DNA of 64,000 nucleotides, taken from Octopus vulgaris (lineage: Eukaryota). Below are positions 5,007 to 38,196 of the stretch, one piece after another. A program made the position numbers and the translations under genes. The stretch lies in assembly GCA_951406725.2 (NCBI GenBank), contig OX597830.1, positions 1,922,001 through 1,986,000 on the forward strand, written 5' to 3'. Under the pieces are notes generated by a model that was not told the DNA's origin, did no database searches, and saw only the letters and a list, made by a program, of their open reading frames with translations. How positions within the stretch are numbered: the first letter of the stretch is position 1; each line of letters begins with the position of its first letter.

Positions 5007-6329
5007 CAGGGGTTGGACGAAATAATGGAAACACCTAGCATCATAGCATCATAATTTTGAAATATCTATAAAACTGTCAAAAGCTTGTTTATTTTTATGT
5101 TTTTTTTTATTTATTATCTGTGTTGCTTAATATGTTTTGCTAAAATTGCTGTTTCTTTTCAGATATCATCAGAAAAAGGTAATTAAATTCATTAAAATGA
5201 CAGATCTATCGGACTTTCAAAGAGGTCAAATTGTTGATACACTTATGGCAGGCACTACCGCAACGAAATCAGCCGAAATGTTTGGTGTATCAAGAAGTAC
5301 TGTCTTGAAAGTAATGACAGCCTTTGAGAAAGAGGGAAAAACCTCGTCGTCGAAACAAAATTTTGGAAGAAAGCCAAAACTTTCAGATAGGAACCGTTGG
5401 ACTCATACACGAATTGTTAGAAAGGATCACAAAAGTACAGCTCCCAAAATTACTGCAGAGTTTAATAACCACATTGAGAACCTAGTTTCCACTAAAACTG
5501 TTCGCCGGGAGCTGCACAAAGCCGGATTTCACGGGAGTGCTGCAATCAGAAAACCATTATTTTCAAAAACAAACGTTGCAAAGTGTTTAGAGTGGAGTAA
5601 AAACCTCCAGAATTGGTCCGAAGAATGTCATTTTCTCGGACGAGTCATCTTTTACCCTATTTCCGACCACTGGCCGAGTATACGTGTGGAGACAGCCAAA
5701 AGAAGCATTTGACCAAGACTGCTTTCTTCCAGCTGTTAAACATGGAGGAGGATCTGTTACGATATGTGGGGTGGGGATCATATCTTGGAAATCCGCCGGC
5801 CCAATGGTTTCCCTTCATGGCAGAATTAATAATCAAGTCTATTTAAGTATTTTCTCTGATCAAATTCATGTTATGGTTGCAGAACTGTGTCCGGAGGGAA
5901 ACGCAATCTTTCAGGATGATAATGCACCAATTCTCACAGCTAAAGTTGCTACTGAATGGCACGAGGAACATTCTAGTGAAGTTGAACACCTTATCTGGCC
6001 ACCACAGTCCCCAAATCTCAATATTATTATTTCAAAATTATGATGCTATGATGCTAGGTGTTTCCATTATTTCGTCCAACCCCTGTATCTCTATGGTGCA
6101 TTTTAGAAAAGCAATTAAGGAGTCGATATCCTCCCATCATCATTACAAGAACTGAGACTGTTTAATCTGAAGAATGGACAAAAATTCCTTTGGAAACAAT
6201 TCAAAACTTTGTACAAGTCCATACCTCATAGAATTCAAGCTGTAATTACTGCTAAAGGCGGTCCTACCCCATATTAAAAGTAATTTGTTTGAAATTTTAA
6301 GGTGTTTCCATTATTTTGTCCAACCCCTG
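5007..6329 (+). mobile_element. Tc1-family DNA transposon, full length, inactivated
   Basis: ~30-bp TIRs CAGGGGTTGGAC(G/A)AAATAATGGAAACACCT, TA at the left flank, encloses a transposase pseudogene. Confidence 0.95.
5197..6277 (+). pseudogene. Tc1 DD34E-type transposase pseudogene
   Basis: MTDLSDFQRGQIV HTH, GRKPKLS, FSDES, VKHGGGSV, FQDDNAP, WPPQSPNLNII, AKGGPTPY*. Frameshift near 5620 and an insertion at 6028-6094. Confidence 0.9.
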
Positions 6330-6779: not shown

Positions 6780-7392
6780 ATCACCGAAACCCCAATGACC
6801 TTCCTGAAGGACTTTATGGAGTGAGCTGCCTAACTGGATTACAATAGAATCAATATTTCAGGGACATAACATCATGGAAATTACTTCACGTTGATGATAA
6901 GTTTGGTGAAAATGGCGGCAAAGTGCAGCTGGACGAATCTCTAATGTTCAAACAGAAAAATCACCAAGGTCGAGTTGTTCAACAATTTTCGGTGTTTGGA
7001 ATGTATGATAACAATAAAAAGGATTACCTGACATGTAAATGTATAGCAACATTAAAACCAATTGTTGAGAAATGGGTTGCTCTCCGAGCCAAAGTGGTTA
7101 CGGATGAATGGTGTGCCTATAATGGATTGGTCGCACTTAATTATCAATATCTTACAGTTAATCATTCTCGTCGTTTTATTGACTGCATTACGGCTGCGTG
7201 GACTAACAATGTTGAGGAATTCTGCTAAAGGATTAAAAAGCCATTAAAAAGAAACGGTGACATTGAAGGGGAATTAAAATGGTCCCTCTTTGATGGATGC
7301 CTTTATAGGCAGTGGTTTGATTTTTCCAAAGCTTCCTTATTACATAATTTTGGTATGTTTCTAAACCATAAAACCGAAATGTATCGTTCATA
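6780..7392 (+). pseudogene. Merlin/IS1595-like DDE transposase remnant
   Basis: ORF 6923-7228: VQLDESL...VFGM...VVTDEWCAYNGL...LTVNHSRRFID...WTNNVEEF. Matches the Merlin/IS1595 motifs DE, tD.w.aY, VNHs and tN.iE. Boundaries approximate. Confidence 0.8.
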
Positions 7393-11231: not shown

Positions 11232-11269
11232 CTGTCTGACGAACGGGAACGTGAAACTCTGAGTAACAG
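11232..11269 (+). ncRNA. Minimal type-I hammerhead ribozyme, intact core
   Basis: ctgt CTGACGA acg-ggaa-cgt GAAA ctctgag TA acag. Stem I 4 bp, stem II 3 bp with GNRA loop, near-palindromic stem III, predicted cleavage after GUA (11265). Confidence 0.85.
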
Positions 11270-17138: not shown

Positions 17139-17703
17139 TGAGAAAGAGAGAGAGAGTGTGTGCGTATGAGTGCATATGTGTATGTAATTTTTATAACTCT
17201 CTTCGTTCTCATCACTCCAAATATATCACTTTGTTTATTTTTTTCTGCTGCATAAAATTTCTAAGACGGGAATCGAGTAAGTCGATGCAATATGTTCTAT
17301 ATCTTGCCACTTCTTCGTGTTACACAACAGCGTGACAGGGTGTGATACGGCATGAGCCCTTCCGATCTTCAGTGTGTGTATGTGTGTGTGCATTTGACAG
17401 GTAAATCTACTTTGAAGGTTGTAAGGTTGAAATACTTGATCTCTTCCGAATTCATGTGGACTGTCGGCCAAAGAATCTTCTCATTGCGAGAACGCTGAAG
17501 CAGCGTTACTAGAGCATGAGGCAAAGTAGTTTGTAGTATTTACGTTCCTAATTGAAATCCCATCAGGATCCGCTTTGACTTTAATCCTTCTAGCGTTAAT
17601 ATAATACACTACCAGTGAACTACTGAGGTCGATATATATATATATTTATATATATATATATATATATATACTTTATTTAAAGCAGCAGAAAATTCAACAA
17701 AAT

Positions 17704-17741
17704 CTGTTACTCTGAGTTTCTCGTTGCCGTTCATCAGACAG
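17704..17741 (-). ncRNA. Minimal type-I hammerhead ribozyme
   Basis: ctgt CTGATGA acg-gcaa-cga GAAA ctcagag TA acag on the minus strand. Confidence 0.8.
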
Positions 17742-18029
17742 TTTTTGCTAGAATGGAACCGATATATCAATTTAATCTAGACTCTTACAAACGCTACACC
17801 TTTAAAAAAATGGACTTGTTTGATTGGCCCTTTAGAAATAACGGTTAATCTTCAAGCGATAAACAAAAAAAAGCTCAAAAATATATGTATATATATATAA
17901 AACATAAAAATTATAAAATTCGAGGAAAAAACCTTACATTGAATAAAATACATATTGACGTTAATGAAGAAAGTATAATTAATGCATAGAAATTAAAACT
18001 TATTATAAATATTACACTGCAATACATAT

Positions 18030-18135
18030 TTATATTAAAGTGTACATATATAAAGGTACATATATTAAAGTGTACATATATAAAGGTACATATATTAAAG
18101 TGTACATATATAAAGTGTACATATATTAAAGTGTA
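18030..18135. repeat. ~30-bp tandem repeat (atattaaagtgtacatatataaaggtacat)x~3.5 in the IR spacer
   Basis: Directly visible. Confidence 0.85.
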
Positions 18136-18204
18136 CATTTTTAAAGGTGTAGCATTTGTAAGAGTCTAGATTGAATTGATATATCGGTTCCATTCTAGCA
18201 AAAA

Positions 18205-18242
18205 CTGTCTGATGAACGGCAACGAGAAACTCAGAGTAACAG
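18205..18242 (+). ncRNA. Minimal type-I hammerhead ribozyme
   Basis: ctgt CTGATGA acg-gcaa-cga GAAA ctcagag TA acag. Confidence 0.8.
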
Positions 18243-18344
18243 ATTTTGTTGTATTTTCTGCTGCTTTAAATAAAGCATATTACTCTACCACTGGTATTTG
18301 AGTACTCTTTTTTCCACCTTGTTTCACATTTATGTGTTTACTCC

Positions 18345-18393
<49 letters not shown>

Positions 18394-25095: not shown

Positions 25096-25498
25096 GGTTT
25101 AACGAGAGAACACCGGGGACGTTTAACATGTGAGAGCGATAAAATAGTGCTCCGAAATCTATCCACAAACATCGGAAACAAAGACATCGCATGGAGCCAA
25201 AAAAGAACTGACAAAGGATTGGACTATATCCGAGTAAGTAATACTCATTGAAATGTAATACTATTTTCCAAACGAAATGATGTATTTTAACTCGATATCA
25301 TCTCCACCTCTAACACAGCACATGTAAACATGCTTGATACATTACAATCCATCAACACCAGATCATCCCCGACCCCAAACACCATGTACAAAAAAAACTA
25401 CGAAGAAATAAAATAACACCGATATTATTCAACCAAAGAATAACAATCGAAAAGTGCGTACTTTAAACTTGTTACACAAAAGGTACGAAAAACTACAC

Positions 25499-28400
25499 AT
25501 GCAAAACAATGTGACAACAGAAATGAACGGACCGGTACCCTACGAAAATGATGACCGTCAAAATAATGGGCCGGACGTTGTTCCTCATGTCCCGCAAAAA
25601 AACCCCAAAAGGCATAGATGGACACGTGAGGAATACATTTCTATCCTACACGCTTACTTTACAGCAGTGTTCTACCCAAAGAACGAAAATACAACAACAT
25701 TTACATATAAAATATGGAAGAAAAATAACATAAATAAAGACTTGGATACAGCAGTGAACACTAATAAACTAGCTAACGTACGAAGATATATTCTCAACGC
25801 AAAAAAATATCAAATATCAGAAATAGAAATAGAACATTTAAAAGAAAAAATACATCAGGAAAATGTAGATAGAAGCCACGCAACAATGCCAAATAATATG
25901 AACACTGAGATAATAAAACACGAAGACAAACGTAACATTTCAAACAAAAACGATGTAAACAAAAAAGAACAAACCCAGACCGTAAGGATGCATAATTATG
26001 CACGGCAAGCAGCAAGCCAAAACACTACAGACAAACATAAGGATGAGAAAGAAAGCGACACAAATCTAAAACCTGGAAACAACAAAGGGGAGCCTAATGA
26101 TTATGATACTATAAAAAGTAGAATAATTAAAGAACTGAAAAACACAGATCTCAAAATGGACCACCGACCATACCTCCCAAAAATCAAAATAGACAAAACA
26201 ACAACATCAATTATAAACAGCATAAAACTAGCCGTCACGGAACTAATAGCCACTGAAACAAAAAGCGATATCACTGAGCTAAATGACTTTGTATATGCAG
26301 CAGTCACTGCAGCCACAAAAGAAGCTGGGTACTCCCTCAAACACATCCAAACAGGAGTACCACCACCCAAGCAAACCCTGTGGATAAATAACATCAAAAA
26401 ACATATACAAAAAATGAGAAAAGATCTGTCGATTCTTAACGAAATCAGTAGACAATCAACGCTACTGAGCAACAAAAAGAAAACAAAAATACTCCGCAAA
26501 TATACCATCACAGAAAAAGATTTACCTGAGATAAAAGAAAAGCTAAAGCAAGATATCCTTGCCAAAGCACAAAGGATCCGCCGGTATGAGAAACGCCAAC
26601 GTTTCTTTGAACAAAACAAAAAGTTCAACTCCAGCCCCCAAAAGTTCTACCAAGAACTTGCCAAAAATAAAATAGACATCACTGCAGCACCAACGGCAGA
26701 AAAAGTGGAAGAATTCTGGAAAGGCATATGGTCGGCGAATGAACAACCAAAAAAAAAGGAGTATTAAAACAACAAACTCAGAATCTGAGCAACTTTGAAC
26801 CCCCATAACAACTGAAGAGGTCACCCAGGCACTGCAAAGACTAAGCAACTGCAAGGCACCTGGGCATGACAAGATCCCCAACTTCTGGTTGCAATATCTA
26901 CCAGGAATACACAAAAAGCTGGCTGAAAACTTTAACAACATACTGGCAGAGCCAGAGACAATGCCTGAATGGCTCACGAAGGGGAAATCCATCTTAATTC
27001 CCAAATGCAATGAGACAGCAAAACCAGAAAACTACAATATACAAAGCATTTGCTGCAGTAATATCACAAAGATTAAGCAAGCACCTGGACGAAAACAACC
27101 TGTTTCCAGAAGAGCAGAAAGGATGCCGCAAAGGCTCATATGGCTGTAAAGATCAACTAATGATCAATAAAGCCATAACTGAAGGCAGCCACAGAAAGAA
27201 GAAAGGCCTCAGTATGGCCTGGATTGACTACAAAAAGGCGTTTGATAGCATCCCCCACATATGGATCCTCAAACACTAGCCATGAACAAAGTTGCACCAA
27301 CAATTATAAAATACATAGGACACTATGAATAAATGGCAAACAGTACTACACCTCCAAACAAAAGAGGGACTCATGAAAACCAAAGCCATCCCCATTAGAA
27401 AAGGAATATTCCAGGGAGACACGCTCTCTCCACTCCTTTTCTGCTTGACACTGTCACCTCTATCTGATATGCTAAATAGAACTGGATGTGGATATAAATG
27501 TTACGGCAAAACTATCAGCCACCATTTATATATGGATGACCTAAAACTATACGCTACAAATGACAAACACCTGGAAACACTACTAAAAACAGTTCATGGA
27601 TTTACCAAAGAAATAGATATGAAATTTGGATTAGAAAAATGCGCCAAAGTAACCATGAAAAGAGGAAAACTAGTTAAGAGTAGCAACATCACACTAGATA
27701 AAACCAATGAAATAAAAAAAATTAGACCAAAGCCAAACTTACAAATACTTAGGAATCCATGAACTAGATAAGACACAAATGAAAGAGAAAATAAAAAAAG
27801 AATATTATAGACGAGTTAGATCAATACTAAAAATAGAGCTCAATGCTAAAGACAAGATAATAGGTATTAACACTTTAGCCGTCCCAGTTATAAGTTACAG
27901 CTACAATATCCTTAACTGGACACTAAATGAACTGACCAAAATAGATAGGAAAACAAGAAAAATAATGACAGGATATAGGATGCATCACCCAAAATCTGAC
28001 ATAGAAAGGCTATATATACAACGTATAGAAGGTGGTAGAGGCCTTATACAGCTGGAAAACTACTATAAAATAACCACCATAGGACTGCAAAAATATCTAC
28101 TTCAGAAGGGAGGAAAACTGATACAAATATCGGCAAAACACGAGCAAAACAAAAAACTGTTCTCAGTATTTAAGGAAGCTACAAATATAAACAAGAAATC
28201 ATACCACCTAATAAATATGAAGAAGAAGAAGAAGAAGAAGAAGAAGAAGAAGAAGAAGAAGAAGAAGAAGAAGAAGAAGAAGACGAAGAAGAAGAAGATG
28301 ATGCTGAAAAAACAACAAAAGCTATAAAACAAATGAAATCCAAACTAAAACTAGAACAGCAACGAACCAAGATAAAACGATGGCAAGAAAAGCCCCTTCA

Positions 28401-29147
28401 TGGTAAATACTGGACTAAACTAAATGCAAAAGAAATAGAGAAAGAAAAATCCCAGCAATGGTTGAGAAGCTCAGGACTCAAAGCAGAAACAGAGGGATTT
28501 TTAATTGCAGCACAAGACCAAAGCCTCCCCACCAGAAATTACCAAAATCATGTAATGAAAAGAAATATAACAAGTAACTGCAGAATATGTGGAGATGGAC
28601 AAGAAACAATAAATCATATTATCTCTGGCTGCCCAGTACTGGCTAAGAAGGAATATATTCACAGACACGACAGAGTTAGGACCTACATACACTGGAAGCT
28701 ATGCCAACATTATGGAATAACAACAGAAAAAAGATGGTATAGGCACACACCACAAAAGGTCACAGAAAACGAGAAAGCAACCATACTCTGGGATATGCCG
28801 ATACACACAGATAGAGAAATTAAGGCCAACAGACCAGATATAGTTGTTAGAGATCATGAAGAAGAAAAATGCTTTCTAATTGATGTATCAATACCAGCAT
28901 ATGACAACGTGTCTCTAAAAGAAATGGAGAAACTTTCAAAATACAAAGACCTGAAAATAGAGGTAACCAGAATGTAGAATCTAAAAACAGAAACAATTCC
29001 TATCATAGTAGGTGCATTAGGCATGATAAAAAATATTCAGACAAATACATAACAAAAACACCAGGACTTACAAACACATATAGCATACAGAAAGTTGCAC
29101 TACTAGGCAATGCACAAATCCTACGCAGAACACTTTCCATACAATAA
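25499..29147 (+). pseudogene. Dong/R4 ORF pseudogene (RT + CCHC + PD-D/ExK endonuclease)
   Basis: KAPGHDKIPNFW, EQKGCRKGSYGCKDQL, WIDYKKAFDSIPH, GIFQGDTLSPLLF, LYMDDLKL, CRICGDGQETINHIISGC, RHDRV, RPDIV..LIDVSIP..K..KYKDL. Several frameshifts and stops. Confidence 0.92.
28219..28298. repeat. (GAA)n microsatellite inside the LINE ORF
   Basis: Directly visible. Confidence 0.95.
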
Positions 29148-36761: not shown

Positions 36762-36821
<60 letters not shown>

Positions 36822-37006
36822 AAGAAGTAAATATATGGCACAACGAAGTACCGATATTTACTGGAAATAGCGAACGTAATAATACGACGCTAATGTATAG
36901 CTTCACCGCGTATGTACTAGCAAAAATGCGTGAGTGCAACAAACTAGAAAAAATTGTCTCACCTCCAGGGAGAACATCTGAAAGATGAAACACCTAGAAA
37001 AGGATA

Positions 37007-37086
37007 ATGTGGGACCGGCGCCGGTTTCAGATTTTTCAAGATATGTCTGCACCCATAAAATTGATCTATCTTCATCAGCCAAACAT
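37007..37086 (-). ncRNA. Type-I hammerhead ribozyme, intact, extended stem II
   Basis: atg-tt-tgg CTGATGA agat..tcaa..tatg-loop-cata..ttga..atct GAAA ccggcgccgg TC cca-cat. 12-nt palindromic stem III, GUC site. Confidence 0.88.
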
Positions 37087-37123
37087 ATACCACGACAACA
37101 TTTCAGATGTTACCACATTAATG

Positions 37124-37195
37124 CCGACGAAGATAGATCAATTTTATGGGTGCAGACATATCTTGAAAAATCTGAAACCGGCGCCGGTCCCACAT
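37124..37195 (+). ncRNA. 5'-truncated mirror copy of the hammerhead
   Basis: CCGACGA agat...atct GAAA ccggcgccgg TC ccacat; lacks the upstream stem-I strand. Confidence 0.6.
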
Positions 37196-37381
37196 TATCC
37201 TTTTCTAGGTATTTCATCTTTCAGATGTTCTCCCTGGAGGTAAGACAATTTTTTCTAGTTTGTTGCACTCACGCATTTTTGCTAGTACATACGCGGTGAA
37301 GCTATACATTAGCGTCGTATTATTACGTTCGCTATTTCCAGTAAATATCGGTACTTCGTTGTGCCATATATTTACTTCTTT

Positions 37382-37786
37382 TCTTTTACTTGTTTCAGTC
37401 ATTTTGACTGCGGCCATGCTGGAGCACCGCCTTTAGTCGAGCAACTCGACCCCGGGACTTATTCTTTGTAAGCCCAGTACTTAATCTATCGGTCTCTTTT
37501 GCCGAACCGCTAAGTTACGGGGACGTAAACACACCAGCATCGGTTGTCAAGCAATGCTAGGGGGACAAACACAGCAGACACACAAACACACACATACATA
37601 CATATATATATATACATATATACGACAGGCTTCTTTCAGTTTCCGTCTACCAAATCCACTCACAAGGCATTGGTCGGCCCGGGGCTATAGTAGAAGACAC
37701 TTGCCCAAGATGCCACGCAGTGGGACTGAACCCGGGACCATGTGGTTGGTTAGCAAGCTACTTACCACACAGCCACTCCTACGCCT
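37382..37786 (-). mobile_element. SINE family 1 with 16-bp TSD
   Basis: TSD ATATATTTACTTCTTT at 37366-37381 and 37787-37802. Confidence 0.93.
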
Positions 37787-38196
37787 ATATATTTACTTCT
37801 TTGTATATTTTTCCCTCACGGGCTATTCTTTACTGGAAAGCAATACTCTAGTATTGCATTACTAATTTATTGAAACTTCTTCACCGTTCTCGTGCTGTTA
37901 GCGTTTCGGCGTTTCAGTCGAGTGTATTGGCATTAATGTGGTAACATCTGAAATGTTGTCGTGGTATATAAATGTTGGTATTAATTGTTGGTATTGTTGT
38001 CGTGGTATATGTTTGGCGGATATATATATATATATATATATAAGTAAATGTAGGGATAACCAAGTTAGACAGATCAATATATAAAGTATATTTAACACAT
38101 GAAATACAAAACCTGTATATATATTTACATACAAAAGGTTCCGCTTTACGCAGAATACAAATGATAGTGAGAATTAAAGGAGTCGGAGTATAACAA

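Follow-up and report, generated by a model that had tools for sequence, protein, structure and literature searches.

A putative retrozyme-like, non-autonomous Penelope-like element of Octopus vulgaris found as two-armed copies with fixed ends in TA repeats

Introduction

Within a 64,000-nucleotide stretch of the Octopus vulgaris genome (contig OX597830.1, positions 1,922,001 to 1,986,000; hereafter the window), a non-coding, hammerhead-bearing unit lies beside an inverted copy of itself in TA repeats. What kind of element leaves such a structure, and from which template was it copied? The element class itself is already known. The origin of head-to-head inverted ends, one-sided tails and copies longer than one unit is, however, called unresolved in PMC8557442, PMC11167929 and PMC3846280, and the tie between retrozymes and Penelope-like elements rests on co-occurrence and pLTR homology in 10.64898/2026.07.22.740005, the covered portion of which contains no analysis of insertion junctions. 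Comparisons with published work refer throughout to those portions of the cited texts that were covered here. The element described below is tiny and young, and whole insertions can therefore be counted.

Results

The locus in the window consists of two arms in TA repeats

The locus is built on an inverted repeat (36821-37079 and 37123-37381) of 259 nt and 98% complementarity with a spacer of 43 nt. The two arms differ at exactly four positions (37125, 37128, 37211 and 37242) and border (TA)n at both outer ends, which bears out a preliminary description of this DNA as a hairpin of about 255 bp with about four mismatches in (TA)n. The parts are as follows; monomer positions are counted from the hammerhead cleavage site.

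36767-36820, no strand: left (TA)n target sequence, the final bases of which also form the TATAT end of the arm
36815-37125, minus: minus arm of 311 nt (0.72 monomer), from monomer position 320 across the hammerhead to the short start site at 199
37005-37087, minus: complete type I hammerhead motif, predicted cut after 37013
37126-37381, plus: first part of the plus arm, from monomer position ~369 (5'-truncated within the hammerhead core) to 193; hammerhead incomplete; GUC at 37187-37189
37240-37245, plus: splice-donor-like sequence GTAAGA, also present in the older subfamily; putative in function
37366-37381, plus: first copy of the 16-nt SINE target-site duplication, an exact match to 37787-37802
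37382-37786, minus: SINE of 405 nt, inserted later, in the plus arm only and absent from the other arm
37787-38021, plus: second part of the plus arm, monomer positions 178-360, a 25-nt stutter, then 345-371
38021-38042, no strand: right (TA)n target sequence

The minus arm is regular (320 to 199), whereas the plus arm is an outlier (~369 to ~371), the second part of which runs past the short (~37808) and long (~37870) ends of the family and stops at the next core. Bases 37085-37125 of the inverted arm form a 41-nt match to 37929-37969. Without the SINE and one duplication, the plus unit measures 476 nt; its length had been put at 430-470 nt, and the slight excess is due to a private 41-nt stutter near 37970-38010. 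The SINE and its duplication had been recognised earlier, and its insertion postdates the two-armed element. ARAGORN called no tRNA gene in this SINE, the head of which we take to be tRNA-like. The SINE is often found flanking other loci of the monomer family.

The repeat belongs to a young, dispersed, non-coding family

An exact 22-mer of the monomer family occurs at 355 places in the 2.8-Gb genome (control 0), and a similarity search with a 258-nt query yielded 1460 candidates, the best 40 of which were scored. From loci mapped to a tandem reference, the monomer was found to measure 431-432 nt, with 38% GC. The first 100 of the 355 places, on contigs C1-C6, represent 72 distinct loci; 70 of these form our genome-order sample, which was not chosen by similarity and includes a few loci that resemble local duplicates. 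The 5' ends of the arms in this sample are scattered, with a median arm length of 170 nt. Upstream of mapped arms lies the monomer itself, TA or an inverted arm, and in no case a coding frame; within tandem monomers, no ATG frame is longer than 68 aa, in line with the earlier statement that there is no ORF. The family is young, dispersed and non-coding. In an older subfamily, the reference of which is numbered from a different origin than the young monomer, the tandem build is the same and the TA ends are equivalent.

Sequencing run X5, which carries the code of another organism, contains pieces of the monomer that differ little from it (query L040:1076-1505); judging from these sequences, the family is therefore probably common to related species. 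Part of the monomer is contained in 19 of 24 sequencing-run rows, none of them recorded as RNA. Four such runs, available as contigs only, displayed no spliced joint and no pile-up of starts or ends, and their wrap-around joints are joints already present in genomic copies, with no bearing on circles or expression. Back-splice-like reads, suggested earlier as a check, cannot reveal circles: the cleavage-site junction is already present in 45 of 117 genomic arms. The family may be listed in Repbase or Dfam or in the supplements of PMC7229834, PMC8557442 or 10.64898/2026.07.22.740005; octopus and cephalopods go unmentioned in the covered main text of PMC7229834.

Each monomer carries a hammerhead motif with covarying stems

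A type I hammerhead motif is present in the sequence of each monomer unit, and its core is intact on the minus strand of the window. There, the motif runs from a bulged stem I through CUGAUGA (CTGATGA from 37078), a stem II with a long extension, GAAA (37028-37025) and a palindromic stem III to GUC (37015-37013). The complete minus-strand hammerhead of the preliminary description was thus recovered, including stem III, although the latter had to be corrected to 4 bp with a 4-nt loop. The 'CCGACGA' reported for the plus strand is indeed a truncated core, but its CC derives from the inverted arm, with its 41-nt match, and position 37128 is a T>C change. A search of Rfam, as had been proposed, gave no hit to a hammerhead family at E<=1; the only matches were to miRNA hairpins and lay below threshold.

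Core columns vary by 1.3%, compared to 3.4% elsewhere. The older subfamily has kept the core and exhibits pair changes on both sides in stem I, stem II and the stem II extension, and young copies exhibit such changes in stem III. Among 14 sequences, which essentially represent two lineages and from which the structure itself was drawn, 95.7% of cells are paired and 5 of 20 pairs have double changes, with slid controls at 20-41%. The palindrome of stem III extends from 6 nt in the older subfamily to 12 nt in the young one and is broken in some variants. For the 12-nt palindrome, folding prediction gave an intermolecular duplex of -26.5 kcal/mol versus a hairpin of -3.3, and according to this model it could pair two RNAs. 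Free folding did not predict the hammerhead, and the stability was no better than that of shuffles (z -0.70); the hammerhead fold lies 5 kcal/mol (monomer) or 14 kcal/mol (local 131 nt) above the free fold. The ribozyme is thus predicted by the folding model to be mostly held off by a competing fold, and it may need a partner RNA or protein. In frogs, eight of nine tested elements did not cleave (10.64898/2026.07.22.740005).

Two-armed insertions mostly pair one short end with one long end

Among the 126 arms of the genome-order sample, 60 end at ~199 (short), 57 at ~261 (long), 62 nt apart, and nine elsewhere, and (TA)4 occurs within 20 nt of the end in 111 of the 117 short or long arms. The start and end within the hammerhead core, earlier taken to mark the unit, are not the ends of the family; the plus arm of the window is one of the nine exceptions, and its neat one-monomer span is therefore not the family rule. 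Head-to-head arms, joined 5'-to-5', were present at 51 of the 70 loci. The sample contains 52 such pairs, which are composed of 46 short+long, six long+other and no like+like combinations (binomial p 3e-14). Extended to all 122 mapped loci (L279 and L280, duplicates of L278, being omitted), the count gave 83 pairs, 69 of them short+long, 11 with an atypical end and two long+long, both from the single complex locus L262; the lone 'short+short' call comes from the locus in the window, which the SINE divides.

The arms overlap at their central junction mostly by 1-5 nt. In 34 of the 46 short+long pairs the long arm extends past the short start, and the two cDNAs therefore overlap on the template. 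One arm lies wholly within the other in 24 of these pairs and neither within the other in 22, and eight of the non-nested pairs share less than 10 nt of template. Diagnostic alleles agree between the arms of one insertion at 235 of 251 comparisons, where 137 are expected; the arms differ by 2.4%, versus 3.6% for other copies. Both arms of the window carry a common allele that is absent from the other arms (0/119). This likeness of paired arms could partly reflect gene conversion or a single source being active at a time. Some arms (L006, L020, L057 and L071) are mosaics of alleles, and one pure template therefore does not explain every copy.

How do these observations bear on simpler origins of the structure? 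The inverted arm might be a self-priming fold-back on one strand, as modelled in PMC3846280, or an assembly artefact. Head-to-head arms with short junction overlaps and the 24 nested pairs would fit a fold-back, but the 22 non-nested pairs, eight of them with hardly any shared template, refute its simple form for about half of the insertions, and each arm has its own fixed, TA-joined end. An assembly foldback, raised in the preliminary description, is contradicted for the window palindrome by the SINE and the four bases in which its arms differ, and by the same head-to-head build at the 51 loci with other breakpoints. We consider a fold-back or artefact highly improbable. Similarly, a long autonomous Penelope-like element might exist of which the repeat is no more than the terminal pLTR in truncated form. 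All insertion marks are those of pLTRs (PMC8557442, PMC3846280), and the donor-like GTAAGA, found conserved by reading young and older subfamily sequences side by side, lies where a pLTR intron could start. Yet arms longer than one unit (25/117) re-enter their own monomer, 46 two-copy matches exist in the genome, the older subfamily shares the tandem build, a frame joining RT and GIY-YIG is lacking, and ATG frames do not exceed 68 aa. This reading, also named beforehand, is already largely refuted for the sampled copies, and we regard it as quite improbable.

Related repeats and a candidate helper

A second non-coding hammerhead family (L205-L229, e.g. L210) has a period of 363 nt, a palindromic stem III, the core CCGAUGA in most copies and two TA-joined ends separated by about 52 nt (2405 candidates, best 40 scored). 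Chimeras of the 432-nt and 363-nt families occur at L061:1290-2304 (minus strand) and L094:1959-2480. At L061, the switch falls just after the cleavage site of the second family and the chimeric unit is in tandem; the foreign segment was considered as an autonomous parent and rejected, as it is the second non-coding family. In one arm of L094, which starts on the second family, this gives way to the first roughly where the opposite arm comes to its stop, and both arms use long ends.

The window itself holds a further head-to-head pair in (TA)n at 17632-18350. Its minimal hammerheads lie at 17737 on the minus strand and 18209 on the plus strand, and only one of its arms has a tail, which measures about 75 nt; a related motif lies at 11236. 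Other elements are a broken LINE at 25412-28977 with matches to RT and zf-RVT, presumably of the RTE type, and remnants of DNA transposons at 5131-6043 and 6848-7228 with DDE_3 and ISXO2-like transposase matches.

A genome search for GIY-YIG domains (6136 candidates, 150 scored, 42 stretches examined) revealed a young autonomous Penelope-like family, L163-L167, with frames of about 479 and 781 aa, measured stop to stop. The 781-aa frame has a GIY-YIG match and an RT match just under the Pfam cut-off, and the 479-aa frame lies upstream. This family has 536 exact hits of its 3' 22-mer, and its Cys linker belongs to the Neptune/Nematis type (PMC8557442). Its copies end on (TA)n at either of two points, which are separated by 34-40 nt, and the head-to-head pairs seen were short+long in three of three cases. 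A canonical hammerhead was not found in it by pattern search. The monomer has no similarity to this family (local scores 26-29, shuffled means 27-28) and no match to 30 GIY-YIG loci. The L163 family is thus a candidate helper by behaviour only. Another GIY-YIG locus, L141, carries an inverted hammerhead pair with a long loop II, in sequence unlike the monomer family.

Arms read through the cleavage site in short tandems

The cleavage site is read through in 45 of 117 arms, and 25 of 117 contain more than one monomer and return to their own monomer sequence. Three of these arms cross the site twice, one of them marginally. Arms of 1.64, 1.78 and 2.1 monomers cross it twice; the longest, 2.1 monomers, is at L032. 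Long tandem arrays, which the preliminary description had suggested looking for, did not appear in exact-pattern searches (17-mer), where only one of the 46 two-copy matches lay within a three-copy run, although diverged or collapsed arrays could escape such a search. The ribozyme 16-mer of one subfamily is doubled at two places, versus 121 single hits, and two complete ribozymes occur only at rare loci (L032, L068 and L088), the window locus not being among them. The tandem units of one arm agree at 107 of 120 allele comparisons, with 64 expected, which makes it likely that a new variant goes through a stage of a single monomer. At the first cleavage site, a stop within 6 nt was seen in only 1 of 46 arms; at the second, such a stop was seen in three of the eight arms that reach it. 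Beyond one monomer length, the stop rate doubles from 0.41 to 0.87 per 100 nt. An identical 5' end at position 46 is common to four of the 44 long arms, a result that held with a majority reference; this position is a possible transcription start.

The genome alone does not separate a circular template from a linear one with jumps. In the case of a circle, the rare two-ribozyme loci would release a 432-nt monomer, which is ligated and on which the RT rolls past one lap. The scarcity of stops at the first cleavage site argues for this, as do the arms that cross the site twice, the lack of an array as a long linear source and the derived alleles common to tandem units, and the doubled stop rate after one lap fits an RT displacing its own cDNA. 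Circles have been proposed for Penelope elements (PMC4209133) and shown for other retrozymes (PMC7229834). However, the stops at the second cleavage site are as expected from a cleaved linear 5' end, mosaic arms require jumps between RNAs anyway, and two-ribozyme loci are rare. We hold a circular template to be possible, with somewhat less than an even chance of being correct.

Alternatively, uncleaved or singly cleaved partial-tandem transcripts may serve as templates, as for an ordinary Penelope pLTR, with jumps rebuilding the length and cleavage being rare. Such linear templates are in agreement with the unfavourable energy of the hammerhead fold, the shared start at position 46, the allele mosaics and the clustering of stops at the second cleavage site; the chimeras L061 and L094 prove template switching, and unprocessed RNA was the dominant substrate in vitro (PMC11167929). 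On the other hand, jumps would have to be very efficient, or cleavage almost absent, to account for the scarcity of stops at the first site; the compensatory changes of three stems are unexpected for a barely used ribozyme; and the chimeric unit of L061 is itself in tandem. We rate linear templates about as likely as a circle, likewise somewhat below an even chance.

Discussion

We conclude that the locus family is very probably a non-autonomous Penelope-like element of the retrozyme kind, retrozyme-like in sequence and putative with respect to cleavage and circles, both of which belong to a retrozyme in the full sense. The preliminary reading as a non-coding, hammerhead-bearing, circularly permuted monomer family with a template longer than the unit and Penelope insertion marks is upheld. 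Like animal non-LTR retrozymes, the family has a monomer that is non-coding, low in GC and, at 431-432 nt, within their size range of 150-450 bp; further common traits are the type I hammerhead, a head-to-tail junction, a palindromic stem III and co-occurring Penelope-like elements (PMC7229834; 10.64898/2026.07.22.740005). Unlike these, it forms dispersed partial tandems without long arrays and with rare two-ribozyme copies, most insertions are two-armed, and loop II has a long, covarying extension; moreover, cleavage and circles are putative in the octopus family.

With endonuclease-bearing Penelope insertions of the Neptune/Naiad type, the family shares 5' truncation, partial tandems, an adjacent inverted and 5'-truncated copy, a tail at one end only, microsatellite targets and a hammerhead upstream of the 3' end (PMC8557442, PMC3846280); in contrast to these, it lacks an ORF, and its tail measures 62 nt instead of the 30-40 nt in print. 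The inverted arm at 51 of 70 loci makes the one-tail rule countable. A Penelope-type protein nicks and extends both strands in vitro and starts at two internal sites that bound a 'tail' (PMC11167929). The octopus family resembles anole Poseidon in its two internal starts downstream of the hammerhead, in the extension of both strands and in a ribozyme that folds poorly alone, but it has no ORF, and both of its starts have TA microhomology, whereas those of Poseidon are non-homologous to the target. Chlamys MRC1 and Chlamys-N4 are likewise non-autonomous Penelope-like elements; their partial tandems are pLTR-like, their insertions short and truncated, and their targets microsatellites. As a rule, the 3' end of elements of this type is similar to that of an autonomous partner, whereas for the octopus family no partner match was found among the loci compared, and clades with an N-terminal EN are without canonical hammerheads, unlike the octopus family (PMC8557442, PMC9977147). 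Likeness of the pLTR to an autonomous partner is usual, not obligatory, in non-autonomous Penelope-like elements.

The structure in the window is most readily explained, and we think with good probability, as one two-armed (TA)n insertion of a hammerhead-bearing 432-nt monomer; a Penelope-like RT/GIY-YIG enzyme is likely to have copied it in trans. The enzyme would cut both strands within (TA)n, and each DNA end would prime a cDNA at one of two internal AU-rich sites, both cDNAs being templated by one RNA or by sister RNAs of one source. The two cDNAs would stop at random and then be joined by short microhomology. At one stage the template would likely be a single monomer, as a ligated circle or as a cleaved linear RNA combined with template jumps; passage through this stage would rebuild tandem length and spread new variants to both units. 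The SINE inserted afterwards.

The two fixed ends likely record the copying of a single RNA by Penelope-type enzymes into either end of a DNA break. The near-strict rule that each insertion combines a short start with a long one, both on the same RNA variant, fits double-ended priming, not simple fold-back self-priming. The counts also show the insertion marks of Penelope elements on a monomer of the retrozyme type itself. The value is mechanistic: the family tests how Penelope elements form inverted ends and tails, and the 432-nt RNA lends itself directly to in vitro tests. As a tentative and bolder proposal, which we consider rather doubtful, a 432-nt RNA circle produced by the ribozyme would be copied by a Penelope RT dimer that primes both ends of a cut TA repeat at the two fixed sites of one and the same circle and can roll past one lap. 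If true, hundreds of copies would settle how Penelope builds tandem pLTRs, inverted ends and one-sided tails, and several such circles would compete and recombine within one genome.
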